A stretch of 64,000 nt of DNA from Candidatus Zhuqueibacterota bacterium (GCA_034506395.1 JAPDPQ010000003.1:230693-294692), one strand, 5' to 3'; shown: positions 36,036 to 57,160, numbered from the stretch's first letter. Numbers and translations: made by a program. The notes: generated by a model not told the origin, from the sequence alone.

Positions 36036-36114
36036 ATCATTTTTAATTCATATTTTCTGATTTCCGTATAGGCTTTCATTAATTTTCTTGAGGGACTAAG
36101 AGAGGAGATATTCA

Positions 36115-37941: not shown

Positions 37942-37958
37942 ATTTTAGTGTCTGTCTG

Positions 37959-38603: not shown

Positions 38604-39111
38604 AGAAAATACCACTTATACAATTTTGTTCGTTTGCTCTGGCAATAGTTGTCGCAGTCCCATGGCTGAAGGGCTTTTGAAAAAAAAACTCTACCCCATT
38701 TATAAAAGCAAAGTGCGGGTGGAATCGGCTGGTACTCTGGGCATAAATGGCAACCCGGCGACACTTCACGCCGTTACCGCAGCAAAAGAAAAGGGGGTTG
38801 ATATCTCGAATCACAGTTCACGAGGGATAACCGAGGCGCTCGTGGCTCGCGCCAATATCATCTTTGCCATGGAGGAGCATCACAAGGAATTTTTGGAACG
38901 GTATTTCCCTAAATACAAAGAAAACGTTTTTTTGCTCAAGGCGTTTAATTTAGGAGATAAAAAGCAGAAAAATCTTGGCATTCAGGATCCGATCGGCGAG
39001 GGACTGAGAACTTATCGTCGCGTCATCAATCAAATTGACCAAGAGCTAGAGCGAATTCTGCCTCAGTTAAGAAAATTAATTGACCAGACATTAGCTGAAG
39101 CTGAAAAATAA
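38593..39111 (+). CDS. Low-molecular-weight protein-tyrosine phosphatase / ArsC-like
   Basis: 'ILFVCSGNSCRSPMAEG' is the CX5R(S/T) P-loop, and 'DPIG' supplies the Asp loop. The start is chosen at MKDKEN. Confidence 0.85.
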   Translation: MKDKENTTYTILFVCSGNSCRSPMAEGLLKKKLYPIYKSKVRVESAGTLGINGNPATLHAVTAAKEKGVDISNHSSRGITEALVARANIIFAMEEHHKEFLERYFPKYKENVFLLKAFNLGDKKQKNLGIQDPIGEGLRTYRRVINQIDQELERILPQLRKLIDQTLAEAEK

Positions 39112-39129
39112 TCACCGCAGAGGAAAGAT

Positions 39130-40248: not shown

Positions 40249-40343
40249 ATGCCTCCTTCCCACGAAATGACACCAAGTAATAGAGCCTTATTTTGTCATA
40301 AAAACGATCTAGCTTTGAAAAACGAGACGACTTAATTATTTAT

Positions 40344-40421
40344 GTCATGCCTGTGAATGCAGGCATCTTTTGATTTGTTATTTTTCAGAGTTAACAAGAC
40401 TCCTGAATTCGCAGGTATGAC
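40344..40421. repeat. Family-A palindromic MITE-like element, copy 2
   Basis: GTCATGCCTGTGAATGCAGGCATC (40344-67) and ...CTCCTGAATTCGCAGGTATGAC (to 40421). Confidence 0.6.
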
Positions 40422-40529
40422 ATTCATCTCCTCGCAAACTGGTCATTTTGCAGAAGCCTAAATAGAAGCGAATGAGAGAAGGATCCATTCGGAGATCTTT
40501 TTCCCTTAAAAGGATCATGGGATGTCGAT

Positions 40530-41474
40530 ATGTCGGATTATGAGCAAATTGATCTGAACAAGATCAGCACATATTCGATCGCACAACGTTTGAATAAAGT
40601 GGCCGTAACGGATTTTGCCAAGCCGTACCGACGCGGCGCTTCGTTCCAACAGTTTTTCGCATCGCTGCCAGGAATTTTGGTCAGCGCGGATTTCAAACAT
40701 TTGGTCCAAACAGCAGTCCAGGCACACCGTGATGGGCGACAGCTTATTGCTATGATGGGTGCTCATGTGATCAAATGTGGTCTTAGCCCGCTCATTATTC
40801 AATTGATGGAAGCTGGTATCATCCGCTGTCTGGCGCTGAATGGGGCTGGGATCATTCACGATTCTGAAATTGCCAACTGGGGGACAACCTCAGAAGACGT
40901 GGCAGAAGCGCTGCAAGATGGGAGCTTTGGCATGGCAGCAGAAACACCGGCTTTTATCAATGATGCTTTGGAGTCTGGGCACCGCCTTCGACTTGGTCTG
41001 GGGGAAGCGGTTGGAAAAAAAATTTGGGAAAGCGATTGCCAGTTCAAACATCTAAGCGTTCTGGCGGCTGGCTATCGCCTCAAAATTCCAGTCACCGTTC
41101 ATGTCGCCATTGGGACCGATATCATCCATCAGCATCCATCTACTGACGGAAAAATTGTGGGGGAGTTGAGCTACCGAGATTTTAAGATCTTTACCTCGCA
41201 AGTCGCAAAATTATCAAAAGGCAGTCTGGTGCTCAATTTCGGCTCAGCCGTCATCCTGCCTGAAGTGTTCCTTAAAGCGCTCTCTATCGCTCGAAATCTG
41301 GGTTATCCAGCTCACGGGTTCACCACTGCCAATTTCGATATGATCCGGCATTACCGACCACAGGTCAATGTGGTCCAACGGCCGACCCAAACTGGGGGCC
41401 AAGGCTACTATTTTATCGGCCATCACGAAATTATGATCCCGCTGCTGACAGCTGCAATATTGGAGGCGTTGTAA
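40530..41474 (+). CDS. Hypothetical protein, possibly with a deoxyhypusine-synthase-like (DHS-like NAD-binding) fold
   Basis: 'MGAHVIKCGLSPLIIQLMEAGIIRCLALNGAGIIHDSEI' and 'IPVTVHVAIGTDIIH' loosely resemble DHS family blocks. The functional call is weak. Confidence 0.35.
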   Translation: MSDYEQIDLNKISTYSIAQRLNKVAVTDFAKPYRRGASFQQFFASLPGILVSADFKHLVQTAVQAHRDGRQLIAMMGAHVIKCGLSPLIIQLMEAGIIRCLALNGAGIIHDSEIANWGTTSEDVAEALQDGSFGMAAETPAFINDALESGHRLRLGLGEAVGKKIWESDCQFKHLSVLAAGYRLKIPVTVHVAIGTDIIHQHPSTDGKIVGELSYRDFKIFTSQVAKLSKGSLVLNFGSAVILPEVFLKALSIARNLGYPAHGFTTANFDMIRHYRPQVNVVQRPTQTGGQGYYFIGHHEIMIPLLTAAILEAL

Positions 41475-41542
41475 AAATTCGGCGAGAATGAATTTCGGTC
41501 AAACTAGAAATTCGCTGGCAACCTTGGCTTTCAAAAATGGGT

Positions 41543-43453
41543 TTATGCTTCTTGGTAGTCACTGAACTGCAAACGATACAACTTCTGATAGCGCGGACAG
41601 GTTTTCAACAGCTCTGGATGCTTGCCCATGCCAACAATCCTTCCCTGATCGAGAACCACGATTTTATCCGCTGCAAGAACCGTTGATAATCGATGGGCAA
41701 TCACAACCACAGTCCGATTTTGGGTGGCCTGGTCGATCGCCTGCTGCACTTTTTGCTCAGACTCGGTGTCCAGGGCACTGGTGGCTTCATCGAAGATGAG
41801 GATCGGTGGATTGCTGACGACAGCGCGCGCGATGCAAAGCCGCTGCTTCTGCCCACCAGACAGATTCGCACCCTTCTGATAAAGCATTTCATCATATTTT
41901 TTCGGGAGCTTCTCAATGTACTCATCTGCATAGCTGATTCGTGCGGCCTCTCTGAGCTGCGCATCCGAAATCTCTTGCAGTGAACCGTAACGAATATTAT
42001 TGCCAACAGTATCGCTGAACAAGATCGAATCCTGCGTCACAGTCCCAAATAGCATCCTCAAATCCTTAAGATCGATATCTTTGATATTGATCCCATCAAT
42101 CAAGATCTCCCCCCGAGTAATATCATACATTCGCGGCAACAGGTTGACCAGGGTGGTCTTGCCAGAACCACTACTGCCCACCAAGGCCACCTTCTCGCCC
42201 TTTCGGATCTCCAGTGAGATATCCTTCAATACATCAGCAGCACCATCATATGAGAACCATACATTTTTCAGTTCAATGCTTCGATCGAATGTCTTTTTCG
42301 GCATAGCATTTGGACTATTCACAATTTCGGATCGCTGGCTTAACACATGAAAAATGCGTTCCAGCGACACCTGAGCTTTCTTGATATTCGCATATGCCTG
42401 GGTCAGTTCTTTGATCGGGTGCTGCATGGAAAAAACCGCTAATAGAAACGCGCTGAACGATCCCAATTGTAGATTGCTTCCTGGGGATAAGATCAGACTG
42501 CCCCCCAAAATGATGATCACCACACCGATCAAAGTGCCAGTTAATTCGGAAAGCGGGATATTGATGCCAGCGTAGATGACCGATTTTCTCCAAAATCGAA
42601 AATATTTCAGATTGATATCTTTGAACCGATCCAGCTCTCGCTCCTCCCGCGAAAAGGCCTTGACGATGCGCATATTATTCAGCACTTCTTCGATATCGGA
42701 GAACATATCGGAAAATTTGGATTGGATCCTTTTCGAGTACTTCTTCACTTTTTTGCCCAATAACGACAGGAGCAATGAGAAAATCGGAAGAATGAGCAAG
42801 CTGTAAAGAAACAACTGGGCGTTGATGGATAGCGCAATGATGATATAGACTGAAAGCAAAACCACATCTCTCACCACATTGAACAAGGGGAAAAGCATCA
42901 TATCATTGACAATATCAACATCAGAGACCATCCGAACGATGCTGTCGCCGACCTTATTGGCATTAAAAAACGCCAGCGATTGTTTCAGATATTTTTCGAA
43001 CATGGCGTTGCGGATCGACATGATGGTCTTTCCCCGCAGATTGGCAAACATGATCTTGTTGAGATAAAAGAAAAGATTCTTCACCAACGTAATGATGATC
43101 ACCGTGCCGCAAATGACATACAGCAAAAATAATGGTTCCGTATGAGCCATGATCTGTTTAAGCTGTTCTGAAATCGGTTTGAAATCAGCTGAACGAGCGA
43201 AGGAAAATAAATTGCCAATTTGCTCTTTAAGCATGCCGATTGTCTGAACTAAGGCATCCCAAAGCTGGGATAAATTATGATAAAGGGCGGGAGTGTCGTG
43301 CGGTTTAAAAATGTAGTCGAACAAAGGAATCACCATGGTAATTGTCACACCGCTCAATGCAGCATAACCGAACATAAAAATTAATCCCACCACCATATAA
43401 ACCCAGTGGCGGAGCATGATTCGAAATAACCGGGAGAAATTCTTCATCTTCAA
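41543..43453 (-). CDS. msbA: ABC exporter (fused TMD-NBD), MsbA-like lipid A / lipid flippase
   Basis: Six N-terminal TM helices are followed by Walker A 'GSSGSGKTT', the signature 'LSGGQKQR' and Walker B 'ILIFDEATSALD'. The gene lies next to an lpxL-like gene. Confidence 0.75.
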   Translation of the reverse strand: MKMKNFSRLFRIMLRHWVYMVVGLIFMFGYAALSGVTITMVIPLFDYIFKPHDTPALYHNLSQLWDALVQTIGMLKEQIGNLFSFARSADFKPISEQLKQIMAHTEPLFLLYVICGTVIIITLVKNLFFYLNKIMFANLRGKTIMSIRNAMFEKYLKQSLAFFNANKVGDSIVRMVSDVDIVNDMMLFPLFNVVRDVVLLSVYIIIALSINAQLFLYSLLILPIFSLLLSLLGKKVKKYSKRIQSKFSDMFSDIEEVLNNMRIVKAFSREERELDRFKDINLKYFRFWRKSVIYAGINIPLSELTGTLIGVVIIILGGSLILSPGSNLQLGSFSAFLLAVFSMQHPIKELTQAYANIKKAQVSLERIFHVLSQRSEIVNSPNAMPKKTFDRSIELKNVWFSYDGAADVLKDISLEIRKGEKVALVGSSGSGKTTLVNLLPRMYDITRGEILIDGINIKDIDLKDLRMLFGTVTQDSILFSDTVGNNIRYGSLQEISDAQLREAARISYADEYIEKLPKKYDEMLYQKGANLSGGQKQRLCIARAVVSNPPILIFDEATSALDTESEQKVQQAIDQATQNRTVVVIAHRLSTVLAADKIVVLDQGRIVGMGKHPELLKTCPRYQKLYRLQFSDYQEA

Positions 43454-43560
43454 ACTACCATCAATGTCTTAACTCGTTCAAGTGAATTATCAAAATTGGC
43501 AATCACAGTGGTGACTCGCTGATCGATTCCTCAAAAAACACGCTTAATCGGCAACAACAG

Positions 43561-43616
43561 ACTGATCACTGATTACTGATCACTGATTACTGATCACTGG
43601 CTACTGATAACTGATT
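43561..43616. repeat. Heptanucleotide tandem array (ACTGATC/ACTGATT), about 8 units; second locus
   Basis: The unit is the same as at 14925-14997. The array overlaps the last ~10 codons and the stop of the lpxL-like CDS (tail ...QLSVASDQ). Confidence 0.9.
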
Positions 43617-44519
43617 CCTCTCATCAACCGCCTTCGTCTTCCACCGTCGATGCATCCAGAACCATTGTTCTGGGTATTGTCTGATATATCGCTCCAGTAT
43701 TTTATTGTATTCGATGATAAATTGTTTCACGCCGTCGTCATTATCTGCAAATTGAGCGCTATCAGGAAAAGGTTCGAAATGGACTCGGATTTTGCCATCG
43801 GCCTCACGGACGCCGAACGCCATGACCACAGGGACCCTATGCTTAATTGCGATGATGGCTGGACCGGGATTGGTAGAGGCTGGTTTGCCCAAAAAATCGA
43901 TCATCATCCCCTTTCTGCCAGCATCTTGATCGATTAAAATGATGACCAGGCCTTTTTGTTTCAGCGCGCTCAATATTCCTCGAGCCGCGCCGCCTTTTAC
44001 TTTAAAAGGCTGCAGCCCAAGCCCCATACGGACTTCCTTGATCATCCCGTCGATCGCAAGGTTTTTTTGTTCTTTGAACACACAAAACGCTGGCATGCCC
44101 AGGTTGGCCACTGCTGCTGCCATATATTCCCAATTGCCGAAATGGCCAGACATTACAAATAACCCCCGCTGCTTTCTCCTCGCCGCCTCGAAGTGTTCAA
44201 TATTTCGGACGGGTATTTGATCCACGATATCAGCACGCTTCAGGATCGGTAGCCTTGCAAATTCCATCAACACGCGGCCGAAATGACGATAGTTCTTCCG
44301 CAGAATGAGTTGCAACGCTCGGGGGCTTTTATCAGTACCAAAGCAATCGCTTAAGTTCTGATACGCCACGTCCCTTCGAATCCGAATCACATAGAAGAAT
44401 AGATCTCCAATCAGATCGCCGATCCGATGGGCAAACTGAAGCGATGTATGTCTCGCAAACAATCCCACCATTCGGCTTAACAAATATTCCATCTTGTATT
44501 GGATCATGACCCCATTCAA
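43587..44519 (-). CDS. lpxL: Lipid A biosynthesis (Kdo)2-lipid IVA acyltransferase (LpxL/HtrB family)
   Basis: 'FVMSGHFGNWE' is the HX4(D/E) acyltransferase motif. The family-typical C-terminus 'YPEQWFWMHRRWK' is present. Confidence 0.8.
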   Translation of the reverse strand: MNGVMIQYKMEYLLSRMVGLFARHTSLQFAHRIGDLIGDLFFYVIRIRRDVAYQNLSDCFGTDKSPRALQLILRKNYRHFGRVLMEFARLPILKRADIVDQIPVRNIEHFEAARRKQRGLFVMSGHFGNWEYMAAAVANLGMPAFCVFKEQKNLAIDGMIKEVRMGLGLQPFKVKGGAARGILSALKQKGLVIILIDQDAGRKGMMIDFLGKPASTNPGPAIIAIKHRVPVVMAFGVREADGKIRVHFEPFPDSAQFADNDDGVKQFIIEYNKILERYIRQYPEQWFWMHRRWKTKAVDERNQLSVASDQ

Positions 44520-44532: not shown

Positions 44533-45450
44533 TCAATTCACCAGACGTTCGTCTTCGGTGTCCCACTGCTCCAAGATGCGCCGATTGCGTCGCCGCATTA
44601 GCATATATCCTGCTAAGAACAACAACAGAACGAATATCCAAAGATAACTATCAAAATCCACCAAAAAATGCCATCGATATTGGTGCTGTATGTATTTCAG
44701 CCATGCCTGTTCAAATTCCCAACGATCGAGGCCGATGTTATGGACCAATGCGTCGTCGAATGGCTCTCCTATTGCCAGATGGTTAATGATCTGTCGCATG
44801 GCTGCTGCACCGTAATTTTTCATTAAGAATACCACTGCCAGATAGCTTTGTTGGTAGGCTAATTGAGCCACATCGGCGCGGAACTCAAGCACGTGGTCAA
44901 TTTCATCCAGAGAGAGCAATGATCCTGTCAGAAGGGCGCGAGAGACCAAGCTGCTTGAGGCATATCGCTTTTCGCCAGAATAGTAAACGGCCAACCCCTC
45001 TTCGAACCAGCGAGGAATTGCTTGACCTTTTAACATCTGATGAAGCAACATATGAACCAGTTCGTGGGTTGCGATGCTCAATAATTCGTGCGGGGGAGTG
45101 CTCCAGGTTGGGGATTTGAGGACAATGATATTTTTGGTGGGAACGGCAATGGCATCGCTCCAATGAGGAGCGTACCGACCCACCAGAGCATCAAAAATCT
45201 GTTGTGACGGTGTTAAATAGACGGCGATAGTTTTTTCGAGCTTAATCCCCAATTCTTGTATGAGCTGCTGGTACGCCGATTCGAGGCCTATTAATAGTTT
45301 CTGACAAACTTTGATCTCGTCGTTTTGAAAATAACAAATGAAGTGCTGACCTGGCATCTGTTGCCAGCTCTGATGCAGAGCGCAATAGGGTGATGCGATC
45401 CCTACCAAAACTGCAACTATCGAGCAGCAGATGCAACGAACTTTCCACAT
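44533..45450 (-). CDS. Membrane-anchored MA-clan zinc peptidase-like protein (Peptidase_MA_2-like)
   Basis: 'IATHELVHMLLH' gives HExxH and a downstream 'WFEEGLAVYYSG' is present. There is an N-terminal signal or anchor and a C-terminal TM (LWIFVLLLFLAGYML). Confidence 0.6.
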   Translation of the reverse strand: MWKVRCICCSIVAVLVGIASPYCALHQSWQQMPGQHFICYFQNDEIKVCQKLLIGLESAYQQLIQELGIKLEKTIAVYLTPSQQIFDALVGRYAPHWSDAIAVPTKNIIVLKSPTWSTPPHELLSIATHELVHMLLHQMLKGQAIPRWFEEGLAVYYSGEKRYASSSLVSRALLTGSLLSLDEIDHVLEFRADVAQLAYQQSYLAVVFLMKNYGAAAMRQIINHLAIGEPFDDALVHNIGLDRWEFEQAWLKYIQHQYRWHFLVDFDSYLWIFVLLLFLAGYMLMRRRNRRILEQWDTEDERLVN

Positions 45451-45451: not shown

Positions 45452-45847
45452 TCACATTTGGGTCTGTTGTTTGACCAATCGAATATACTCCCAGATCGCC
45501 TGCACCATCACATCCACCTGTTCTTTTATTTTTTTTCGAGCACATTTCGAGTTCACAAAAACACATTGCGATGCCTTGCATTGATAGAGGCTAAATGAAC
45601 AATGCTGTTTTAACTGATATTCAGATGATGGGGTCATCTTGCGGGTAATTTCTCTGCGATCAAATTTTTTGCCGCGACAGACGATCCCGAATTCCACGGT
45701 CTTTTCCCATAAAAATTTTTGGAGACCACTCACTCCATAGTCATCCAATTTATCGATCAAATCACTTACCTTCTTGCCATGAAACAGATAATAGATGATT
45801 TCCAGGCGGTCACTCAGTCTCAATTCTATTCTCGACTCCAGCACCAT
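45452..45847 (-). CDS. Hypothetical protein (131 aa)
   Basis: This ORF abuts the downstream gene with a 1-nt gap. It has no recognisable motifs. Confidence 0.45.
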   Translation of the reverse strand: MVLESRIELRLSDRLEIIYYLFHGKKVSDLIDKLDDYGVSGLQKFLWEKTVEFGIVCRGKKFDRREITRKMTPSSEYQLKQHCSFSLYQCKASQCVFVNSKCARKKIKEQVDVMVQAIWEYIRLVKQQTQM

Positions 45848-45963: not shown

Positions 45964-46446
45964 TTAGGACGCTTTCTCGATAAGCATGTTGATCAGTAGC
46001 CGCATGGCATCTCGAGCACTTTGGGGATCATCGATTTGCCCGAAGGTGAATCTGCAACCAGCAGATAAGGGGATGCCTTCAAGTTGATAAAAGCGATCAG
46101 GGATTGGAGGATCTTTTTTATCTTTGATACTGGCAACAACGACAATCGGCGCATTAAAATTTCTGGAGCAATGGTCCAGAATCGATTTGGTAAATTCCAG
46201 CGCTTTTTTATCTTCCCAGTCAAAAATAATAATAAATCCCAGTGTCTTTTGGGACACCAGGTCTAATGAGCGCAAATTCAATTCGGCGCTAATCCCATAC
46301 AGGTGCAGCATCAAATTTTCATTTACTTCCAACCGACCAAAGCTGACGGATTTGCTGCTGAAATCAATACGCTGGCAAATTGCACGGACAAAAGCTTCTG
46401 CTTCATTCGATGCGTGACTGATGATTGCAACTTCCCCGATCCTCAA
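45964..46446 (-). CDS. Small Ras/MglA-like protein lacking a P-loop (putative pseudo-GTPase)
   Basis: The size and strand/helix periodicity resemble a small GTPase. 'VAIISHASNEAEAF' sits where GxxxxGK(S/T) is expected, 'LYGISAE' where DxxG is expected, and 'VVVASIKD' where NKxD is expected. Confidence 0.45.
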   Translation of the reverse strand: MRIGEVAIISHASNEAEAFVRAICQRIDFSSKSVSFGRLEVNENLMLHLYGISAELNLRSLDLVSQKTLGFIIIFDWEDKKALEFTKSILDHCSRNFNAPIVVVASIKDKKDPPIPDRFYQLEGIPLSAGCRFTFGQIDDPQSARDAMRLLINMLIEKAS

Positions 46447-46507
46447 AGATAGTCCCTCCCCAGTTCACCCACAGTAGAATTCACTTCATGCCTCATCGGT
46501 TTGACAG

Positions 46508-47734
46508 TTAGCTTAAGCGCTCCCGAATCATTAGTAAATCAGCTTTTGTCAAACGAATCTGATTGGATTCTTTCAATCGATCTTCACGCCGGCGGCCATA
46601 GCGCCGACGATCAGGGAGTTGCCTTCTTTCGCTGAATGGTTGCTCGTTCCGCGAATTGTCAATCTGGGAACTTTTAAACACATTGGCGATAATTGCTGCC
46701 ACCCGCTCCCGAGGCGACTTAGCTTGAGAAGCCTGTTGCTTGAGACGCGCTAAATAACTGTTGGTATAACTGACAAAATTCTCTTCAGCTTCCTCCAGGT
46801 AGCCCTTTTGATAGAGTCGCTTGATGATGGCCAATGATGTGACATCGCTAAAGCGGCTCTGCTCGATAATATCGGAAATCCTCTTTGCCCCATCTATGCT
46901 CGAAAGGATCTCTCTCTCTTCGTCACTCAAATCCTGATAGGAATTGACCCCAGTCCGGCCAACGATGGTGTTCAATGGCGGTAATCCCTTTTTCAGTTGC
47001 TCCCATTGATTGATTTCCCGCATTCCAGCGGTAATCAATTCCTTGTTGGATTTTTGAAGTCGTCGCTCGCGCTCCACTACGGTCATCTCCACCGCAAAAC
47101 TCCCAATATTCCAACTAAACATCTTCAGCAGCGCTTGCTCGGGAGCAAGATCCTCAAGCAATGCATCGATCACCTCACCATCTTTGACATACACAAACCC
47201 CTCGCGCGAGTCATGCGTCAATCTCACGATCGCTGATTTTTTGCCCAGTTCTAACGTCTGAAGTAGATCGACTAAATTCATTTCCAAAAGGCTGCCGGAA
47301 AATCCCCGCTCCGGTTGAGATTGCGTTTCGCTGAGCTGCGAAAGCTCGGCAAATAATGCATCCACGCGGGCGACCACTTCCTCGACGAAAAACGGCTTCG
47401 CAATATAGTCATCAACGCCAAGCTCAATTGTCTTGATGCGATCATCCACTCGTTTCTGATTGCTGATAAATATGTACGGGATCGATTTCAGGGATGGATT
47501 GGAGCGGATCTCTTTGAAGAATTCATGACCATTGAATTGGGGCAGCTCGACTTCAGAAATCACCAAATCGGCTGGCAGATTTTTCACCATTTCCATGGCT
47601 TTTAAACCATCCTCCCAGCATGTCACCTCATATCCGGCTTTTACCAATGCCGTGCGCAGCGGAACAGTGTAGCTTGGATCGTTATCAATGATCAAAATCT
47701 TCTTCATCTTTTCCAGATCTTCCATTTCCACCAC
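46508..47734 (-). CDS. Atypical response regulator: receiver (Asp-to-Glu acceptor) + DUF4388/PATAN domain
   Basis: In the REC domain, 'KILIIDND...ADLVISEVELPQFNG...IFISNQ...YIAKPF' aligns to CheY D57 as Glu. 'FSGSLLEMNLVDLLQTLELGKKSAIVRL' is the DUF4388 signature. Confidence 0.8.
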   Translation of the reverse strand: MVEMEDLEKMKKILIIDNDPSYTVPLRTALVKAGYEVTCWEDGLKAMEMVKNLPADLVISEVELPQFNGHEFFKEIRSNPSLKSIPYIFISNQKRVDDRIKTIELGVDDYIAKPFFVEEVVARVDALFAELSQLSETQSQPERGFSGSLLEMNLVDLLQTLELGKKSAIVRLTHDSREGFVYVKDGEVIDALLEDLAPEQALLKMFSWNIGSFAVEMTVVERERRLQKSNKELITAGMREINQWEQLKKGLPPLNTIVGRTGVNSYQDLSDEEREILSSIDGAKRISDIIEQSRFSDVTSLAIIKRLYQKGYLEEAEENFVSYTNSYLARLKQQASQAKSPRERVAAIIANVFKSSQIDNSRNEQPFSERRQLPDRRRYGRRREDRLKESNQIRLTKADLLMIRERLS

Positions 47735-47808
47735 CTATCAATCCGTCATCAAAACTTTCGGCGCTCAAATAGCTTGAATGCGAAAGGACTCCCAATGGCT
47801 CTTTCTTC

Positions 47809-49947
47809 CTACATCATGGCGGTTTTCAGGCGAATATCCTTAATCGCTGCTTTGCGCATCATGTTTTCCGAAGCGGAACGCGTTGCCGCGATTAAGATTT
47901 TCCGGATCGAAGACTTATCTACTTCATCCCAGGCGATTAAGGGTACGAGTTCGTCCAATTTAAATTGATATCGAATCACATCCATCGTCACATTATTTTG
48001 ATCGAGAAAATTCATCGCAGCGACCGCATAGGGCAATTGGTAGCGCGCTGTTAGGGAATGAATCAGATATGAACTGTATTCCCATGTCTCAGGCTTGGTA
48101 CAATCAACCGCGAATATGAAACCAGCGAGTTTTGATTTCACCGACTCTAAAAAGACATGGAATGGCTTGTCCACCGACACCGCAATTAATTGATATGAAG
48201 TGAACCCATCGATCCGAATTCTCCCCACGTCCAATTGCATATCACCTAATGCCTGGATCTTGGTCGACGTAAAATGATCTTGCGTCAAAATGTCCATCAA
48301 TTCATCTTTGCAATCATCATCCACACTGATCACGACGATATGGTTCTTCAAAGCAGCTTGTTCTGCTGATGTTGCAAATTTCTTTTCATATTGGTCCGAT
48401 ATTGGGGGGCGATCCGCAACTGGAACCCGATCAGTCAGCGAAGCAATGACTCGAGGCTCCTCTTCAGCCGATAACTCGACCGCCTTGCTGGGCGGCTCAA
48501 CAGGCGGTTCAGGTTCAGCCTGCGACGTGAGATCACGCATTGCCGTGGGCCGATCCTCCCGCGCACTGATACTATACTGCTGAATCAGCTCTTCATCGAC
48601 GAAAGTCTCCTGTGAAATTTCAGCCGTCTCATCACGTTGAACTCGGCTCGGCTGGACGAATTCATCCGCTTCCATTGGCTCTGGTTCAATCGGCGCAGCC
48701 CTGTCATCTGGCGCTTTGGGCAGAACCTCGGATGCCTCGCTTTCGGGCTTTGACACGGTCACAGCACGCTTCTCCTGCTCAATCCGCTCAAGGATCGGCC
48801 GGATCTCTCGCTCGATCTCTTTAAACTTAGGAAGCGGCTGACTCTCCAATTCAATCTTATCCACCAGTTCGGTCTCAACTGATTCACGTTCATCTGACGA
48901 GACTTCTTCAGCTTCCATCGATTCCAACTTTTCCGATATCAAGCCTGACTGCTGTTGCGGTAGTGGCTTGGCCTCTGGTGGAATCGTCGGCTTAATGAAT
49001 CCCTGCTGATATAGCCGCACAATCCGTTTCAATGCCACAAGGTCATCCAAACCGCTATCCTCAATAATCTGATCGACCTCTCGTTTCCCATCAAACAGCT
49101 TCACAAAATTGGCGATTTCACCATTGACTCGCCTTTTCTGAATTAGCATTCTGAATGTCGGAGTAATGGTGAATGCGGTTCGCGGTGAGGATAATTGGCT
49201 GATCAACTGTTCGCGGAGTTCCAGTCGCTTGATCCCATGGAGCAGTAACCCTAAGTTACTGACCGAAATCTCGTCCGGCACATCGATCTCCTTGAATACC
49301 ATCGTGAAATAGCCTCGATTCCAGGTCAGCATCTGATAGATCGCAGGCTCTTGTTTGATGTCACCCAGGCTGGCATTGACCACAGCACCATCCCGAAAAT
49401 AGACTTGCCCGGTTCTTCGGCCATTGCTCAGCGTCAATACTCCAGTTTTTCTCTCTACCCCAAAGCTCTCGATCAAATCCGCTAAAGTGAGTTGATCCAA
49501 TCGACCCGAAAATCTCATATAAGCATCCAACTGCTCGCTTTTTCTTCGCTCCAGCCGTCGCAATACCATTCGAATATGAGCGACAACTTCCTTGACATGA
49601 AGCGGTTTGACCAAATAGTCTTTTGCCCCCAATTCAAAGCCGCGCACCCGCTGCTGGATATCGCGCTGATTGGTCAAAAAGATCAGCGGGATCGACTTGG
49701 TGTTAGGATCAGCTTGAAGCCGTTCCAACAATTGAAAACCTGTCAATCCTGGCAAATTCACTTCGGTCAAGACCAACTGCGGTGGGGATTGCTGGATCTC
49801 TTCCCAAGCCTTATTGCCATTGGAAGCCGTAATAACGGTAAAACCTGAGGCCTCAAGGTTCTCTTTGAGAATCTGCAAATTCTTGGCATCCCCATCTGCC
49901 ACCAGCACTGTTGGATTCATCATACCATCTTCTCGCTGTATGGACAA
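47809..49947 (-). CDS. Atypical response regulator: receiver (Asp-to-Glu acceptor) + DUF4388/PATAN + acidic linker + C-terminal P-loop-less Ras-like domain
   Basis: The REC domain reads 'VLVADGD...QLVLTEVNLPGLTG...IFLTNQ...YLVKPL'. The DUF4388 region reads 'FSGRLDQLTLADLIESFGVERKTGVLTL'. The C-terminal ~170 aa ('HIVVISVDDDCKDEL...AVAAMNFLD') resemble the neighbouring 160-aa protein. The start is a TTG. Confidence 0.8.
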   Translation of the reverse strand: MSIQREDGMMNPTVLVADGDAKNLQILKENLEASGFTVITASNGNKAWEEIQQSPPQLVLTEVNLPGLTGFQLLERLQADPNTKSIPLIFLTNQRDIQQRVRGFELGAKDYLVKPLHVKEVVAHIRMVLRRLERRKSEQLDAYMRFSGRLDQLTLADLIESFGVERKTGVLTLSNGRRTGQVYFRDGAVVNASLGDIKQEPAIYQMLTWNRGYFTMVFKEIDVPDEISVSNLGLLLHGIKRLELREQLISQLSSPRTAFTITPTFRMLIQKRRVNGEIANFVKLFDGKREVDQIIEDSGLDDLVALKRIVRLYQQGFIKPTIPPEAKPLPQQQSGLISEKLESMEAEEVSSDERESVETELVDKIELESQPLPKFKEIEREIRPILERIEQEKRAVTVSKPESEASEVLPKAPDDRAAPIEPEPMEADEFVQPSRVQRDETAEISQETFVDEELIQQYSISAREDRPTAMRDLTSQAEPEPPVEPPSKAVELSAEEEPRVIASLTDRVPVADRPPISDQYEKKFATSAEQAALKNHIVVISVDDDCKDELMDILTQDHFTSTKIQALGDMQLDVGRIRIDGFTSYQLIAVSVDKPFHVFLESVKSKLAGFIFAVDCTKPETWEYSSYLIHSLTARYQLPYAVAAMNFLDQNNVTMDVIRYQFKLDELVPLIAWDEVDKSSIRKILIAATRSASENMMRKAAIKDIRLKTAMM

Positions 49948-49980
49948 AATCGAACTCTCTCTCCTGGTTTAGATATTTCC

Positions 49981-50009
49981 AATATAATCAAAATTCAATC
50001 CGATGTCAA
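49981..50009 (-). promoter_or_regulatory. Sigma70-type promoter of the regulator operon
   Basis: On the minus strand the elements are TTGACA (50009-50004), a 17-nt spacer and TATATT (49986-49981). AGGAG follows before the start at 49947. Confidence 0.5.
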
Positions 50010-50683
50010 GCATTTTTTTTGACACTTCTGTGAAGCCGTTCCGCGCCTCCAACACAACATTAACCAATGCTTCACAAGCAATCTTGGTCCGTTTCTTCGC
50101 CAGTTGCAGCGTTCTGCTCATTCCAGAGAGATTGGGTATCTAATCGGAAGATCTCGTCATCTGGTGCATATTGCTCAATCGCGCCGGCTTCGCTATGACA
50201 GCCATTGGAATTCTTGCTGCTCCAAGCCGCAGCAAGCTTTTCCTCTATTTCTAATTGACCATGCCCGACCAAACAAAGTTGCCTTTATCTTCCGAAAAAG
50301 AACAAGCTGATAGCAACATATGTTATTCAAATTTCCCCCATCCTCATACGTCCCGCTGTTGATGCTTCATCCCTGGTGAAAACGCTAAAACATCCACCAA
50401 AATAAGACCTATCATTGACGCCCCTTCTTCATCCTTCCCCTTTATATTGAATGAGGCAATTTTTAAAACTCTCCCCCATTAAGAGAGGGAGGCAATGAGG
50501 TCAAAATACGCAGCTTGTGCCAAGCCCATTTCAATTTGATTTATCACTTTCCGAACTTCAATTTGCGGTGAGACAATTTGCCTATTTTTAGAGTTAAATC
50601 AAACTTTGAAACCATTGCCTTCAAGAGGTGTGTTAGCAAGAATTCATTGTTCGAATTGAGATGACATCTTCGCTGGGGGCGAT

Positions 50684-51367
50684 TCATTTGTTATCACTTT
50701 TTGGCCCAGGACGATAGATATACACGGTGTCGACAATTGTTTTATAAACGAAAATGCAGTCGTAATACGTGCTATCTCCTGCTGAAAACCAGTCCCACCC
50801 GCGACGCCCTGGGCTTGATGAATCGGTATTTGGAAGAAAGTTTAGCGCTGATTCATTATAATCCCACATCTCAAACATCACCGTTGTGGAATCGCGCTCC
50901 AGCTTGAGTTTCATCGGAAGGTCTTTATAATTCTTATCCAAGCTTCGCAATAATGATATGAAAATGTTGTAGGCTGGTTTTCGCTCGGTATAATCGTTTA
51001 CCATATTCGGATCTGAATTTTGGGCAACGATTTGAAAATTGGCTTTGAATTCCCAATTGTTCATCAAGTCCTGCGCGTTTTTCGAAACGTATTCGATAAA
51101 ATAGATCTCATCCGACGGATATACCCGCACTAGGTCCTTGGGACCAAATCCATTTCTGCCTACATCAATTATCTCCATCCGGGTCACCAGAGTTTCAGGA
51201 ATAAAGAATTCATCCATCAGCAGTTTGATTAAGCTTTGGTTTGTAATGGTCATCATTGGCACGCTGATCTGAGTGACCCTAGCTTGGGATGAATTGAACG
51301 TTTGAGCGAATGACCAAGGCGCAGCCATCGCACAGATGATGAACATTTTAAAAAGAAAATTTTTCAT
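50684..51367 (-). CDS. Hypothetical secreted protein
   Basis: A signal peptide 'MKNFLFKMFIICAMAAPWSFAQ' is present. The ATG at 51367 has a GGAG upstream; the ORF track extends to 51400. Confidence 0.55.
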   Translation of the reverse strand: MKNFLFKMFIICAMAAPWSFAQTFNSSQARVTQISVPMMTITNQSLIKLLMDEFFIPETLVTRMEIIDVGRNGFGPKDLVRVYPSDEIYFIEYVSKNAQDLMNNWEFKANFQIVAQNSDPNMVNDYTERKPAYNIFISLLRSLDKNYKDLPMKLKLERDSTTVMFEMWDYNESALNFLPNTDSSSPGRRGWDWFSAGDSTYYDCIFVYKTIVDTVYIYRPGPKSDNK

Positions 51368-51576
51368 TCTGCTTTCTCCAAAGTTTTCTTTATATTTCAT
51401 TCCGATGATCGGAAGCGATGAATCAGCCTACTTAATTGGTGCAAAATAGATGAATCCGACAAAATTTCGGCCAGCCCTTTTCATCTGTCCCACCTCTTGA
51501 AACGAATCAGCTCGCGCTTGCGATACTGCTGGCTTTATTAGTTTCTGGTGTAAAATGCAGAGTTGCAATAAGCCGT

Positions 51577-51853: not shown

Positions 51854-52927
51854 TCATTTCTTCGGCTTGACCTGATCCCACCAGGTCAAAAATACTTGAT
51901 AAAACTCCATGGTCTTTTGTTCATTAGCTGGCAACTGACTGGTGCTGAATGCGAAAATTTCGCGGTCCGTGCCTCGAGTAATCGACCCAGTCCGTAAATA
52001 ATTACTCTGCTTCTTGAAGCCACTGTCGATTAGCATGGTGGATTGATTCCCCTCGACCAAGCAAATCCGAATTTCCCTGCGATTAGGCTTGTAAAGCAGA
52101 TAAAATTCAAACCGGCGATCTCGATGCTGAAAAGTCACTCGCGATGTAAGATCTCCCGTTTCATACATCATAAAACTTCTGACCACAGGAATGAATTGGC
52201 TGGGATGTCTTTTCATCCATTCCATCAGGTCATCGATGATAACTGAAATATCGCTGCGTTTTTTGGCTTGTTCACCGCTGATCAATTGAATATCCAACTG
52301 TCCTGATTCAGCTGAAATTTTGGTATCTGCAATTGCTGAACCAGAATGATGAGAGAGAATGATATTTCTTCCAGCAGTGTGCTGATTCACGGCGACATCA
52401 TTGATTGCAACTGTTTGCCCCACCTGCGTCGGTTCGACTCTAAAAATGGGCGATAGTTGGGTCGCATTGTCATGCAAAATATCGGTCGATTTCTCTAATT
52501 GAATTGGCGGCAGTTGATCCGGCAAGATGGCCGGCTCAATTGGTTGAGAGATCGGCCGCTTTGGGACATTTAGTAAATTAAGATTGGGGTGCTGGTTGAT
52601 GACGGACGTCACATCCCGATTCAGCAAATCAGTGTCGACAATTTCTGCCCGTTCTGGTTGTGCCATCGCCCCATTCTCATTTTGAACTTTCGGCATAGGA
52701 ACTTCGTGCCGTTTGATCAGCTTGATCCGTTCTGGAGAAATTTTCTCAATATCGAGTTCGCGATACTTTTTCGTGAACTGGATGTTCAATGGAGGGATCT
52801 CTGAAGTTTTGAGAAAAATGTACAATAATATGATGAATAGCACGACCATGAGATCGCACATGCGCCGGTAATTGGTGATTTTGCCTTTCAACTCGCCCCA
52901 ATTGTATCTTTCAATGATCCATTCCAT
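51854..52927 (-). CDS. Membrane-anchored protein with an ExbD-like N-terminal TM segment, a Pro-rich linker and a novel C-terminal domain; sits in the TonB position of the cassette
   Basis: 'RRMCDLMVVLFIILLYIF' parallels 'IRLIDVVLI(V/L)LFGF' of the two adjacent ExbD proteins and includes the TM Asp. The linker reads 'PKRPISQPIEPAILPDQLPPIQ'. I see no TonB_C-like pattern. The gap to the upstream exbD is 14 nt. Confidence 0.5.
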   Translation of the reverse strand: MEWIIERYNWGELKGKITNYRRMCDLMVVLFIILLYIFLKTSEIPPLNIQFTKKYRELDIEKISPERIKLIKRHEVPMPKVQNENGAMAQPERAEIVDTDLLNRDVTSVINQHPNLNLLNVPKRPISQPIEPAILPDQLPPIQLEKSTDILHDNATQLSPIFRVEPTQVGQTVAINDVAVNQHTAGRNIILSHHSGSAIADTKISAESGQLDIQLISGEQAKKRSDISVIIDDLMEWMKRHPSQFIPVVRSFMMYETGDLTSRVTFQHRDRRFEFYLLYKPNRREIRICLVEGNQSTMLIDSGFKKQSNYLRTGSITRGTDREIFAFSTSQLPANEQKTMEFYQVFLTWWDQVKPKK

Positions 52928-53812: not shown

Positions 53813-55399
53813 TTAGCCCTGGCCTAGAGCTTCAAACTCCAGTCGCGCCTTTCGTATTCCTTTGGCGGTCACTTGGACAGAGTTGAACCCTGGCTTGCTC
53901 CCGAGTGTAAAATATGCTTCCGCAATGCCATTCTCGTCGGTCGTCGTGGTGAAAACGGTTTTCTTCTCGGGAAAATATCCTTTTCCTTTGATGACTTTGT
54001 AGGTGACTGGCAAATTGGGCACTGGATTATCAAATTTGTCGACCACCTTGATAACGAATGGTTCTTTGAGCTCTTTTCCGGCGGCGGAGTTTTGGTGGTT
54101 GCCCGAAACATAAATGACCCGGTCGGGTTCAGTCGGTTTCCCCCAGGCAGTGAAATAGATCGCTGAATTACTGCTCTCTTTCAATCGCACTTGAACACGA
54201 TTTTCTCCGGCCGTACTACCTAAGATCAATTCGGCCTGTGCTAAGCCGCTGGCATCACTAGTTACTTCCTGCTGTTTTCGGCCATTGGCCAGCTTGCCAT
54301 TGCCACTGACAACTTCAAATACCAGCGTTTTGTCGGCGACCCCATTCCCATTTCCATTGGAAATCTGAACCACTAACGGTTTTTCCAGTCGGTTGTTCAC
54401 CATCACTGCTTGATTATCCCCAGAAATCGGTATCAGCTTATAATCGCTATTCCCATTTCGAGGATTGGACACCAGCGAATTTGCCACATCAAAAATCGGT
54501 TCTTTCGATTTCAATTGACGATCGACTGCGGCGATCACGGCTTCAGATAGGTCGTATGCTGGACTCTCCACTGGAGGAGCCAGTTCGGATTCATCATCAG
54601 GAATTGAATTATCCAGCGTTTGCTCCATCTGATGAAGCCTTAATCGGAATTGCCCGGCGAGATCGGTTACTCGATCAATTCTTTTGCGGAAATAACTATA
54701 TGTTTGGGTGGTAAACAAATTCAAGAAGACACTTACTACCAAGCCCATAAGGGTGGTGACTAGAGCCACACCCATTCCGCTGAGGATCTTATGTTTTTCA
54801 AGATCGCCGCCAAAAAAGGTGAGAAACATTCCCCATACCGTCCCTAAAAGCCCTAGCGCCCCAGCCGTGTCGGAGAAAAATGCCATCTTGGCCTGGAACG
54901 TCTGGAAACGGCTCTGCTGAATCTGGACGAAATCGACAATCTCGTTGCTAAATCCTTCGGCAGATTTGCGCGTTTGATAAAGGTCAAGCATGTGCTTGAA
55001 CAGTCGGCTCAACATGCTGTCCTTGGTGTTCTTGATCACCCGGATGATGTCAACTAGAGTGGACTTGCGCAAGTCAAGCCGTTCTAATTCTCGGGCATGC
55101 TGACGATCCAACGCTAGTTCTGTTCCTTTGTAGAACACGGTCATCATCCCCAATATGAAATCGGCAATGATGATATACCGCCAAAATCCAGCCAGCAGCG
55201 TAATGTCCCAAAGCGACTTCAAGTCTCGAATATTGGTCAACAAATCAGGATTCATGCCTTGTCCGCTTGCTTGTGTGGCAGTGCTGTCGCTGGCAGGCGT
55301 TTGAGCCAATGCGACGAATGTCTGAAATGCCACAAATAACAACATGCTGAAAATAGCAGCTAATGCAATGCGCTTGTTGATCATATCTCTGCTCCTCAA
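53813..55399 (-). CDS. exbB: MotA/TolQ/ExbB proton-channel protein fused to two C-terminal Ig-like (Big_1/invasin-like) domains
   Basis: 'FFSDTAGALGLLGTVWGMFLTFF' and 'GMGVALVTTLMGLVVSVFLNLF' are the ExbB TM2 and TM3 blocks. The C-terminal segments 'LVVQISNGNGNGVADKTLVFEVVSGNGKL...SGLAQAELILGSTAGENRVQV' and 'FVIKVVDKFDNPVPNLPVTYKVIKGKGYF...NGIAEAYFTLGSKPGFNSVQVTA' look like Big_1 repeats. Confidence 0.8.
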   Translation of the reverse strand: MRSRDMINKRIALAAIFSMLLFVAFQTFVALAQTPASDSTATQASGQGMNPDLLTNIRDLKSLWDITLLAGFWRYIIIADFILGMMTVFYKGTELALDRQHARELERLDLRKSTLVDIIRVIKNTKDSMLSRLFKHMLDLYQTRKSAEGFSNEIVDFVQIQQSRFQTFQAKMAFFSDTAGALGLLGTVWGMFLTFFGGDLEKHKILSGMGVALVTTLMGLVVSVFLNLFTTQTYSYFRKRIDRVTDLAGQFRLRLHQMEQTLDNSIPDDESELAPPVESPAYDLSEAVIAAVDRQLKSKEPIFDVANSLVSNPRNGNSDYKLIPISGDNQAVMVNNRLEKPLVVQISNGNGNGVADKTLVFEVVSGNGKLANGRKQQEVTSDASGLAQAELILGSTAGENRVQVRLKESSNSAIYFTAWGKPTEPDRVIYVSGNHQNSAAGKELKEPFVIKVVDKFDNPVPNLPVTYKVIKGKGYFPEKKTVFTTTTDENGIAEAYFTLGSKPGFNSVQVTAKGIRKARLEFEALGQG

Positions 55400-55408: not shown

Positions 55409-57160
55409 CTAATTTACAAATTTAATTTCCACAATTCCGCCTGGCACGTGTTCAGGTTTCGGTTGAGATCGAATGTCAATCTCCAACCTTCGCGATATTT
55501 TCTGGACAAAAAAGAACTTTTCATCACTATGTTGCCATTGTCCCTGCTTATCTTGCCAATAAAAAGCATAACTATAAACGTCAGGGCGTATGATATTGCC
55601 ATGATCATCCCGCCAATCCCAATGAACCGATTTTGGAACGGGCGCTTCTGCGGCGAAAGTCTTGATGATTTGATGATTCCCATCTCGAACTTCTAGTTTC
55701 CACTGGCCATGATATTTGCGCATCTTGACTGATGAAATCTTAAAATGGACCGATTTTGGAGTGAGGGAATGATATTGCCGGCTGCTCAGTTGCTGAACAT
55801 CCCCGACCGTCGTCCGATTCGAATCCAATTGGAGCATCGGCTGAAACTGAATCTGGTTTGCTAAAAACGGCGCATGATTGATCATATAATCGCGCAGGTG
55901 TTTCGCCCGCTCTATTGCGCTTTCCTCAGGGATAAAACGTACCGAGGCAATCTTTCTCTGAAGCAGGTTCTCCGCCAGCCAGGACTCATATTTTTTCGAG
56001 TAGCGGGAAGCCGTTATCAGCTTTGGCAGCCGTTGATTCGTCGTTCCGCCATGATTATACAATTTCGATACTTCGACCAGCGAATCGTTTATAGCTAATT
56101 CTTCGGCATCGAGATTTTTAAGTGCGCTGACTGGTACATCTTCCGCCACGCTATGATTGATTTGTTGCGCCAGAATCTCCAGTTTCTCCGTCTCGATGTC
56201 CACAAAAAATTGGGGTTCTATGTCAAATCGCAGAAAATGACCTTCATCGTAGCGGCTCCGCGTCAGGTTAATGAAGTTTTCATCATGACCTAGTTGATAA
56301 ATGATACTGATCTGGTGGCTACCGCTGCTCAGCCGATTGATCTCATACAGCGGATAATCATAATTATAGTTAAATGAAAGCCGAGGTGAAACTTCAAAAC
56401 GGGCTCCGATCTTCGCAGCTTGCTGCACCACCCCCACTCTCAAGGCAGAAAACGCCACCGGCCGCGCCTCCACCAACAAATTCGTCTGCCAATGCCTTTG
56501 CATATAATTGAAAGAGAGCGAACCCGTGAACCACCGCCACGAATAACTTACCCCCCAATCGTAAATCAGCGGCTGTCGGTACTCATCTTTTGACAACGAA
56601 ATATCAGGACGATTAAGATGATCGCACGAAAACCCAACCGCAACTGTGGACCAGGGAAAGAAAATGACGCCTGCGCCAATGCTCTGGGCAAATTTGACCG
56701 TCCCATCAGCAAATACAGGATCCCCAGGATCAGTCATATCAAAATATTTTTGATGATATGATTTGGTGAATAAATTATAGCGTAACCCTACCGCAACTCG
56801 CTGAATTGGCTGCTTTGCCAGCACCAACGAAAAATTGGTTTGGCCATATAGGGGTGCTGTGAAGTTTTGCCCTGTCACTGCCAAGCTAAGCAAGCCTAAA
56901 CTTTCCTCAGGCAAAGAGTAACCGATATAGCTGCTGCGAAGACCGAAATCATTGCCCTTCAAAAAACCCAATTGGTAAACCTTCATGCCCACCATGATCT
57001 GGTGACGATGGAACGGCACAACCGCTGGATTGACGAACAATGTTTCTTCACTATAGCTATCAGATGGATCACCGGATATCAAATTTTGAGCCGAGATGGT
57101 TGAGATTATCACCAACTGAACCATCCCGACCATCAGCCAAAACCAACATGTTCGTGTCAT
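55409..57160 (-). CDS. PorP/SprF-like outer-membrane beta-barrel protein with a ~300-aa C-terminal extension ending in a FlgD-Ig/CTD-like beta-sandwich
   Basis: A signal peptide is present (MTRTCWFWLMVGMVQLVIISTISAQ; ATG at 57160 with a GAGG upstream; the ORF track extends to 57196). The N-terminal half shows '...FVNPAVV...', alternating beta-strand periodicity and 'GSHQISIIYQL', as in PF11751 proteins. The C-terminus reads 'VHWDWRDDHGNIIRPDVYSYAFYWQD'. Confidence 0.5.
   Translation of the reverse strand: MTRTCWFWLMVGMVQLVIISTISAQNLISGDPSDSYSEETLFVNPAVVPFHRHQIMVGMKVYQLGFLKGNDFGLRSSYIGYSLPEESLGLLSLAVTGQNFTAPLYGQTNFSLVLAKQPIQRVAVGLRYNLFTKSYHQKYFDMTDPGDPVFADGTVKFAQSIGAGVIFFPWSTVAVGFSCDHLNRPDISLSKDEYRQPLIYDWGVSYSWRWFTGSLSFNYMQRHWQTNLLVEARPVAFSALRVGVVQQAAKIGARFEVSPRLSFNYNYDYPLYEINRLSSGSHQISIIYQLGHDENFINLTRSRYDEGHFLRFDIEPQFFVDIETEKLEILAQQINHSVAEDVPVSALKNLDAEELAINDSLVEVSKLYNHGGTTNQRLPKLITASRYSKKYESWLAENLLQRKIASVRFIPEESAIERAKHLRDYMINHAPFLANQIQFQPMLQLDSNRTTVGDVQQLSSRQYHSLTPKSVHFKISSVKMRKYHGQWKLEVRDGNHQIIKTFAAEAPVPKSVHWDWRDDHGNIIRPDVYSYAFYWQDKQGQWQHSDEKFFFVQKISRRLEIDIRSQPKPEHVPGGIVEIKFVN

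Follow-up and report, generated by a model that had tools for sequence, protein, structure and literature searches.

Three Genes for Receiver-PATAN and Ras-Like Proteins

The window examined here is a stretch of 64,000 nucleotides from a Candidatus Zhuqueibacterota bacterium (GCA_034506395.1, JAPDPQ010000003.1:230693-294692). Within it lie three co-directional open reading frames (ORFs) on the minus strand, designated BIG, MID, and G160, whose products combine receiver (REC) domains, PATAN/DUF4388 domains and Ras-like modules (Table 1). A reading of this stretch made from the sequence alone (the sequence-only reading) had proposed that these proteins form a polarity or scaffold module operating without phosphorylation or nucleotide, and that the module may regulate a nearby adhesin/Exb-motor operon. 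As detailed below, both receivers have glutamate where the phospho-acceptor aspartate is expected, both Ras-like modules have lost the GTPase motifs G1 to G4, and all three genes are nonetheless conserved. Orthologous loci in other genomes are referred to by L numbers, of which L002-L011 belong to the same KSB1 subclade as the window.

The longest ORF of BIG (47809-49947, 712 aa) opens with a TTG codon at 49947 and that of MID (46508-47734, 408 aa) with a GTG codon at 47734, but these are probably not the real starts. We instead assigned the starts to the ATG codons at 49923 (MMNPTVL...) and 47725 (MEDLEKMKK...), because orthologs and a conserved 5′ untranslated region (UTR) support them. G160 appears to start at a TTG codon, as do several of its orthologs. 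Together MID and G160 repeat the order found in BIG (REC, PATAN, winged-helix-like region, Ras-like module), but split over two genes, and the simplest reading is that BIG on the one hand and MID plus G160 on the other are two paralogous units that work together. In L012 only 1 nt separates the MID gene from the G gene, and in L014 the two genes share 4 nt, suggesting coupled synthesis of the two proteins. The Arg-rich tail of MID, which ends in a conserved LTK.(D/E)LL.IRE(R/K)L motif, is kept in L012, L014, and L018 and is absent in L015.

Glutamate Replaces the Phospho-Acceptor Aspartate in Both Receivers

Pfam searches identified a Response_reg domain in both BIG (84.2 bits) and MID (80.1 bits, E 1.7e-22), well above the cutoff of 30.2. 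As the sequence-only reading had noted, each receiver is followed by DUF4388/PatA_N (MID, 68.5 bits, E 6.9e-19; for BIG see Table 1), and the orthologs of both proteins are annotated as PatA_N. In BIG and MID alike the receiver (residues 13-126) precedes the PATAN domain (146-245), an order that differs from the PatA-type architecture of N-terminal PATAN and C-terminal REC. Searched by sequence against the PDB, the PATAN domains returned no match. The region after PATAN may be a winged helix: in MID a borderline HTH_27 match covers residues 269-318 (E 1.4e-4; score 22.5 bits, cutoff 22.2), and the winged-helix-like region gave only marginal sequence matches in the PDB, with a faint similarity to Lrp/MecI winged helix-turn-helix (wHTH) proteins (E 0.2-0.4).

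To place the receiver residues, we aligned both domains with PhoP of Mycobacterium tuberculosis and with CheY and PhoB. The position equivalent to CheY D57 is occupied by glutamate in BIG and MID (LVLTEVNLP and LVISEVELP), in agreement with what had been read from the sequence. In BIG this acceptor residue is Glu62, the acidic pair DD is replaced by D18-G19, and T92 and K114 are kept (712-aa numbering); MID has D-N for DD, a serine at T87 and a lysine at K109, so that the description of these acidic pockets as half degenerate also held. Orthologs sampled down to ~30% identity have the acceptor glutamate in nine of nine BIG and eight of nine MID proteins (17 of 18 receivers), aspartate occurring only in the MID protein of L014. 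The CheY D13 position varies among orthologs (G, N, T, R, P, or A), and K109 is invariant. Both proteins match the receiver profile with a non-Asp acceptor and so fit the aspartate-less receivers by sequence; relative to a canonical phosphorylatable receiver they retain the profile, the T/S, and the lysine and lack the acceptor aspartate and the DD pair. Judged from these alignments, the combination of triad-1 kept, triad-2 lost, glutamate at the acceptor and lysine kept is the modal pattern of aspartate-less receivers and so represents an already known kind. Glutamate is the commonest substitute in such receivers (26%, PMC4395418) and is able to mimic phosphorylation (PMC4395418, PMC12632262).

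G160 and the C-Terminus of BIG Are Ras-Like Modules Without G Motifs

G160 has no match in Pfam or NCBIfam, and a sequence search of the PDB returned only noise (MTA/SAH nucleosidase, E 0.17). The structure predicted for G160 by AlphaFold2 (AF2) from its family alignment had a predicted local distance difference test score (pLDDT) of 85.7 and a predicted template modeling score (pTM) of 0.86. Its best Foldseek matches in the PDB were Rab, Ras, Rho, and Rheb (TMq ~0.7; 695 hits with E<=1e-3), while the top matches to the model of the BIG C-terminus were Arf, Sar, and MglA (867 hits with E<=1e-3). Both modules thus have a G-domain fold, with a Foldseek probability of 1.00 to Rab, Ras, Arf, and MglA and TMq values of 0.6-0.75.

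The claim that the BIG C-terminus resembles G160 also proved correct, although the relationship is invisible to BLASTP (E = 38) and weak in a comparison of narrow profiles by hhalign (60%). With broad profiles, hhalign aligned the free G proteins with the BIG C-terminus over 149 columns (98.6%, E 8e-16), the free G proteins with real GTPases (99.8%, E 3e-30), and the BIG C-terminus with real GTPases (99.6%, E 1e-24). Exhaustive HMMER searching with the G160 profile retrieved 159 representatives at the 50% clustering level. The best ~60 of these are proteins of ~160 aa that start with MRIGE(I/V)A... and all lack Walker A, and from E ~1e-9 the matches are intact small GTPases (GPFNAGKT...DFGRI...FGTPGQ...NKQD). 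The intact relatives match ATP_bind_1, Arf, and Ras in Pfam and are of the MglA-family/COG2229 type, the same type that lies behind the label "SRP receptor beta" used by JGI.

At the aligned position of Walker A, G160 reads SHASNEAE and the BIG C-terminus SVDDDCKD. Switch I is deleted in the free G proteins (18 residues) and the switch-I threonine region is lost in all members; in the two window modules the G3 position reads YGISAE or AVSVDK and the G4 position ASIKDK or AMNFLD. In a joint alignment of free and fused modules, none of the aligned members retains the G3 motif or NKxD. The small-GTPase fold and homology are therefore accompanied by the absence of G1-G4, and on alignment and predicted fold we regard both modules as true Ras-superfamily derivatives without these motifs. 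Class-i pseudoGTPases sensu Stiegler and Boggon (as cited in PMC12490416) combine a GTPase fold and lost G motifs with an absence of nucleotide binding and hydrolysis; by sequence and predicted structure both modules fit this class. We also looked in the window proteins for an aspartate at the acceptor position, a cryptic P-loop or a fold unrelated to Ras, any of which would have contradicted the sequence-only reading, and encountered only glutamate, no Walker A, and Ras-like models.

Across the family the loss of the P-loop is, as read from the alignments, graded and stepwise. In the free G proteins the series runs GPRGVGKK (L012), GPRGAGKA (L014), GPEGAGKK (L015), and SHASNEAE (window), and in the fused module it runs from an intact GTAESGKT (L014) through GASGSGRE (L012) to SVDDDCKD (window). 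Invariant acids occupy former Gly/Lys/Thr positions in the window lineage (E15 and E17 in G160; DDD-K-D in BIG). Such acids would presumably prevent the binding of phosphate, and they may occupy the pocket themselves.

The L014 locus (L014:7334-10486) carries a less-degenerate module, with an intact Walker A in the BIG C-terminus and aspartate in the MID receiver, in which the acidic pair is E-N and the T87 position is glycine. By these residues it is a natural intermediate.

Selection and Transcription

BIG, MID, and G160 are all under strong purifying selection. In comparisons of BIG with its L002 ortholog, the ratio of nonsynonymous to synonymous substitution rates (dN/dS) was 0.008 for REC and 0.007 for PATAN; the values for MID and G160 were 0.056 and 0.065, respectively. 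Only the acidic/Pro-rich linker of BIG is fast-evolving (dN 0.47).

The promoter that had been proposed upstream of BIG, TTGACA-N17-TATATT, is present at 50009->49981, where it has 11 of 12 matches and is the best site in the region. Promoter-like sites are no more frequent in this region than chance would predict, but six KSB1 lineages share the element AAAAAAATGCTTGACAT...TTTGATTATATTGG without change, whereas the flanking intergenic DNA is not alignable. Because the promoter is conserved, we consider the trio to start its own transcription unit following a spacer of 736 bp. The downstream genes for p131, a metallopeptidase, and LpxL are probably transcribed together with the trio, and a terminator scan found no convincing operon end within the array.

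Within the 736-bp spacer itself (49948-50683), which separates BIG from p238, no ORF is conserved, though a gene call of 68 aa exists at the equivalent place in L002. Only its last ~90 bp are conserved among relatives, comprising the A-tract, -35, -10, and 5′ UTR. A TGTCAA...TTGACA palindrome over the -35 was considered as an operator and rejected, as it is not conserved in relatives (the A-tract alone is).

Genomic Context of the Module

Table 1. Features of the module and its surroundings in the window. Residues of BIG are given in 712-aa numbering.
Feature	Coordinates	Strand	Description
BIG gene	47809..49923	-	704 aa from conserved ATG; REC(Glu), PATAN, possible winged helix, ~200 aa acidic/Pro-rich linker, pseudoGTPase
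BIG receiver domain	49570..49908	-	Residues 14-126; Pfam E 9e-24
BIG PATAN/DUF4388 domain	49219..49509	-	Residues 147-243; PF14332 E 6.7e-16, 58.9 bits, cutoff 25
BIG C-terminal pseudoGTPase module	47848..48351	-	About residues 533-700; VISVDDDCKDELM in place of Walker A
MID gene	46508..47725	-	405 aa from conserved ATG; REC(Glu), PATAN, possible winged helix, Arg-rich tail
G160	45964..46446	-	Free-standing pseudoGTPase, 160 aa; IISHASNEAEAF in place of Walker A
Sigma-70-type promoter	49981..50009	-	TTGACA-N17-TATATT, A-tract 5′ of it
p131	45452..45847	-	Conserved companion protein, 131 aa
Peptidase_MA_2 metallopeptidase	44533..45450	-	HExxH; Pfam E 7.7e-28
LpxL-type lipid A acyltransferase	43587..44519	-	Pfam Lip_A_acyltrans E 4.6e-51; last consistently co-linear gene
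MsbA-like ABC transporter	41543-43453		After LpxL
p238	50684-51400	-	Secreted or lipoprotein-like, no known family
p357	51854-52927	-	N-terminal transmembrane helix, Pro-rich stretch
ExbB/MotA-family protein	53813-55399	-	528 aa; two C-terminal Big_1/invasin-type Ig domains
PorP/SprF-like protein	55409-57196
CHU_C adhesin	57477-62048		1523 aa; type IX secretion system (T9SS) type-B

In the window's KSB1 subclade the trio lies within a 13-gene array, from PorP to MsbA, whose collinearity extends over five KSB1-type lineages, with proteins 49-88% identical. The order of its first part is PorP/SprF, ExbB fused to Big_1, ExbD, ExbD, p357, and p238, and that of its second part BIG, MID, G160, p131, Peptidase_MA_2, LpxL, and the MsbA-like ABC transporter; the adhesin, which carries a CHU_C C-terminal domain (CTD), is encoded upstream of the array. 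Outside this subclade the surroundings change. In L012 and L014 the trio stands by itself among unrelated genes. In L018, Lon/DksA lies upstream, followed by BIG, MID, G, p135, PepMA (the metallopeptidase), and LpxL, and in L015 the module is preceded by LpxB, LpxK, and a sigma-54 regulator and followed by p120, PepMA, LpxL, GT9, Sua5, GT9, and DUF3108. The metallopeptidase and then LpxL are found downstream of the trio in KSB1, L015, and L018, and p131 follows G160 in KSB1 loci, L015, L017, and L018. The conserved core is thus the trio and the extended unit the trio plus p131, PepMA, and LpxL, with Exb/PorP adjacency being lineage-specific. Our pattern scan of GTDB species representatives, which found four loci, used KSB1-specific peptides, so that it understates the spread of the family relative to HMMER.

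In p131 the motif F.WEKTVEFG is invariant, and four cysteines form a CX6CX4CX6C cluster. We considered it as a substitute for Roadblock/MglB or a member of a known zinc-binding family; neither is supported, as p131 has no Pfam or PDB match. The Peptidase_MA_2 gene begins 1 nt after the end of p131 and encodes a protein with an N-terminal signal/transmembrane segment, a C-terminal transmembrane anchor, and a short basic tail. The order trio-p131-peptidase-LpxL points to the cell envelope in general and not to the Exb operon specifically; a context of membrane peptidase and lipid A is suggested by the gene order no less strongly than the Exb/adhesin operon.

This bears on the proposal that the cluster regulates the adhesin/Exb operon. 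The distance of about 2 kb given for that operon is accurate, as the end of the Exb-linked p357 (51854) is ~1.9 kb from the cluster start, and one might picture the module as a gliding/adhesin polarity controller that regulates or positions the adjacent machinery of T9SS-type adhesin, PorP/SprF, ExbB(Big_1), ExbD, and ExbD. The 13-gene collinearity and the nature of the upstream genes (a CHU_C type-B CTD adhesin, PorP/SprF, and an ExbB/ExbD motor) would fit such a role, and elsewhere surface motility is under the control of PATAN and MglA systems (bioRxiv 10.1101/2021.06.11.447907; PMC4316618). However, the synteny is confined to L002-L011, all Exb-adjacent loci being from one narrow clade in which shared ancestry may explain it; the trio occurs without ExbBD/PorP in L012, L014, L015, and L018 and in the complete genome L001; the trio has a separate, conserved promoter behind the 736-bp spacer; and p357 and p238, although conserved in KSB1 loci, have no BLAST-detectable homologs in L015. 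We consider this explanation unlikely. Regulation of the Exb operon is weakened as a proposal by these comparisons, and a polarity role is unsupported beyond analogy to PATAN, MglA, and FrzS systems.

Several neighboring genes merit description in their own right. The ExbB/MotA-family fusion with two Ig domains comes directly after the PorP/SprF-like protein and the adhesin and is followed by two ExbD genes; the fusion and the gene order are kept in KSB1 relatives. It may encode an unusual motor, driven by the proton motive force and linked to an adhesin at the cell surface, in a lineage outside Bacteroidota. Only 14 nt lie between the second ExbD gene and p357. This is the place at which one would look for a TonB-like protein, but the p357 product has no TonB_C match. 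On the other side of the module, positions 30798-44519 of the window form an island of lipopolysaccharide (LPS) and outer-membrane genes (GT1, GT9 heptosyltransferase, Glyphos_transf, NTP_transferase, Sua5, LMWPc, DUF3108, a familyless protein of 314 aa, the MsbA-like ABC transporter, and LpxL). LpxL, GT9, Sua5, and DUF3108 are LPS companions common to the flanks in the window and in the distant L015. Finally, an eroded module is found in the complete genome CP070762.1 (L001:8644-12439), where BIG is absent, with a Peptidase_S8 gene upstream, and MID has lost ~75 residues from the beginning of its receiver. Of LpxL only a fragment of 36 residues is left after the peptidase, while G160, p131, and PepMA are intact.

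Comparison With Known Systems

PatA-type regulators of cyanobacteria (PatA, PixG, PixE, LsiR) likewise combine PATAN/DUF4388 with a CheY-like receiver, and some of them are orphan and phosphorylation-independent, with PATAN as the output that binds motility-motor proteins, as in Synechocystis (bioRxiv 10.1101/2021.06.11.447907). BIG and MID differ from them in the reversed domain order, in their Asp-less receivers with glutamate, and in the addition of a winged-helix-like region and an Arg-rich tail or pseudoGTPase; moreover, the locus has no type IV pilus genes. The G modules are homologs of MglA-family-type small GTPases with ATP_bind_1 and Arf matches, which invites comparison with the MglA/MglB/RomR-RomX polarity module of Myxococcus xanthus and with MglA-family GTPases in general (including the CvnD/MfpB conservon GTPases). 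As in M. xanthus, a receiver protein is associated with a G protein, and MglA is among the Foldseek matches. Unlike in these systems, none of the G motifs is retained, a receiver-PATAN protein carries one of the G modules as a fusion, and there is no Roadblock/MglB, RomX, histidine kinase, or DUF742 partner. None of the genes of the conserved array has a Robl_LC7 match, and the locus is not a conservon (CvnA-D), as the histidine kinase, Roadblock, and DUF742 partners are absent from it. PATAN genes occasionally adjoin mglA group 1/5 and mglB genes (PMC4316618); that survey dropped sequences without G motifs and would for this reason have missed the pseudoGTPase family described here.

The receivers share the REC fold and a non-Asp acceptor with ChxR and plant pseudo-response regulators (PRRs), which have glutamate, FrzS, which has alanine, and RitR, which has asparagine, and their glutamate, lost triad-2 acid and kept lysine are the modal pattern reported for this group (PMC4395418, PMC12632262). 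They differ in that the output is PATAN plus a pseudoGTPase and not a DNA-binding or coiled-coil domain, and in that two such receivers are found in tandem in one conserved module. Similarly, a Ras-like fold with eroded G motifs is known from the eukaryotic class-i pseudoGTPases CENP-M, AAGAB psGD, p190RhoGAP pG1/pG2, and dynein light intermediate chain (LIC), which are static protein-interaction or binding modules (PMC12490416, PMC5593906, PMC4359372). The present family is bacterial, has an independent MglA-family ancestry and extant P-loop-loss intermediates, and is assigned to the class by sequence and predicted fold. Aspartate-less receivers, PATAN-MglA neighborhoods, and class-i pseudoGTPases are thus all known kinds, of which the module is a variant. 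Our literature searches turned up neither a report of bacterial pseudoGTPases linked to PATAN nor anything on gliding in KSB1.

A Probable Scaffold Built From Disabled Switches

The explanation that we favor, and consider probable, is that the cluster encodes a conserved cytoplasmic scaffold or adaptor made of pseudo-receivers and pseudoGTPases in which both types of switch are disabled. The module looks like a bacterial polarity switch that has been hard-wired into a fixed scaffold. Its two paralogous units would each comprise receiver, PATAN, and Ras-like module, fused via a disordered linker in BIG and split in MID and G160. The receivers would be disabled by glutamate in place of the phosphorylatable aspartate and by loss of the second Mg-binding acid, and the G modules, presumably derived from MglA-family (COG2229/ATP_bind_1-type) GTPases, by loss of the P-loop, switch I, G3, and NKxD. 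BIG, MID, and G160 would then no longer cycle and would act as a permanently "set" scaffold: the Glu-receivers, held in one conformation, may heterodimerize, the PATAN domains would be the partner-binding output, and the pseudoGTPases fixed docking surfaces. Because the trio is probably transcribed with p131, LpxL, and a metallopeptidase that is anchored in the membrane and faces the periplasm, it likely acts at the inner membrane or cell envelope. Within the KSB1 subclade of the window the target may include the adjacent adhesin/PorP/ExbBD apparatus. For the phosphorylation- and nucleotide-independent scaffold of the sequence-only reading, the Asp-less Glu receivers and the loss of G1-G4 make this the most economical reading of the window proteins, while the Walker A kept by one distant ortholog suggests that nucleotide independence may not extend to the whole family.

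Several observations weigh against this explanation. The AF2 model of the BIG C-terminus (residues 523-712) had a pLDDT of 77 and only one of five models was confident, the alignment being shallow (six sequences) because the word-index homolog search gave two and then six hits. Some members of the family may still bind nucleotide or be phosphorylated, since L014 keeps Walker A in the fused module and aspartate in MID. Glutamate does not always mimic phospho-Asp (PMC4395418), and other inputs can regulate pseudo-receivers (PMC12632262, PMC4395418). The link to the envelope is one of gene order, and no PilB/PilC or MglB partner was found in the locus.

A bolder form of the scaffold explanation, which we put forward tentatively as possible but doubtful, is that the module represents the first described bacterial family of class-i pseudoGTPases, MglA-derived and paired with Glu pseudo-receivers, in which a polarity switch has been frozen in an "on-like" state by acidic mimics to give a 2:2 envelope hub. 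The receiver glutamate would mimic an acyl-phosphate, and E15/E17 or DDDxKD the phosphates of a nucleotide. The envelope machine organized by such a hub would be that of MA-peptidase and LpxL or, within KSB1, the adhesin/ExbBD apparatus, and L014 and L012 would be extant intermediates recording the stepwise freezing.

Alternatively, the switches may be rewired and not dead, responding to a ligand, a partner, methylation of the glutamate, or non-canonical nucleotide binding via residual Lys/Arg residues, so that the module would still be a dynamic switch. It is consistent with this that the receivers keep K109 and T/S, that the Walker lysine is kept in the fused module of the window (DDDCKD), and that distant free-G members have GK remnants and L014 an intact GTAESGKT; inputs to pseudo-receivers may also exist, with glutamate a possible methylation site (PMC12632262, PMC4395418). 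We nevertheless judge it quite unlikely, as the window lineage lacks the Gly-rich anion hole, the Mg-binding Ser/Thr, switch I, G3, and NKxD, has invariant acids at phosphate-binding positions, and has no kinase, methyltransferase, guanine nucleotide exchange factor (GEF), GTPase-activating protein (GAP), or Roadblock gene in the conserved array. Finally, MID and perhaps BIG could be phosphorylation-independent transcription factors of the neighboring envelope/motility operons, with the post-PATAN winged helix and Arg-rich tail on nucleic acid, as the borderline HTH_27 match, the faint Lrp/MecI similarity, the strongly basic, conserved tail of MID, and the constitutive DNA binding of many Glu-type aspartate-less receivers such as ChxR (PMC4395418) might suggest, but this seems very improbable given that the HTH evidence is marginal, winged helices often serve protein contacts, the PATAN domains studied so far work by protein-protein interaction, the tail is absent in L015, and no operator-like repeat is conserved beyond the promoter.

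The significance of a scaffold of this kind lies in its components. Receivers and Ras-like GTPases are the two classic switches of bacteria; here they occur side by side and in two copies each, deprived of the chemistry of switching and still under strong purifying selection and conserved across deep lineages. The module would thus be a natural system for studying how switch proteins turn into scaffolds, and its series from intact to absent P-loops is suited to biochemical comparison. It would also extend the pseudoGTPase concept, so far mostly eukaryotic, to an MglA-derived bacterial family, and may open a way into the function of PATAN, a domain that is still poorly understood, and into the organization of the envelope or of surface motility in the uncultured KSB1 lineage.

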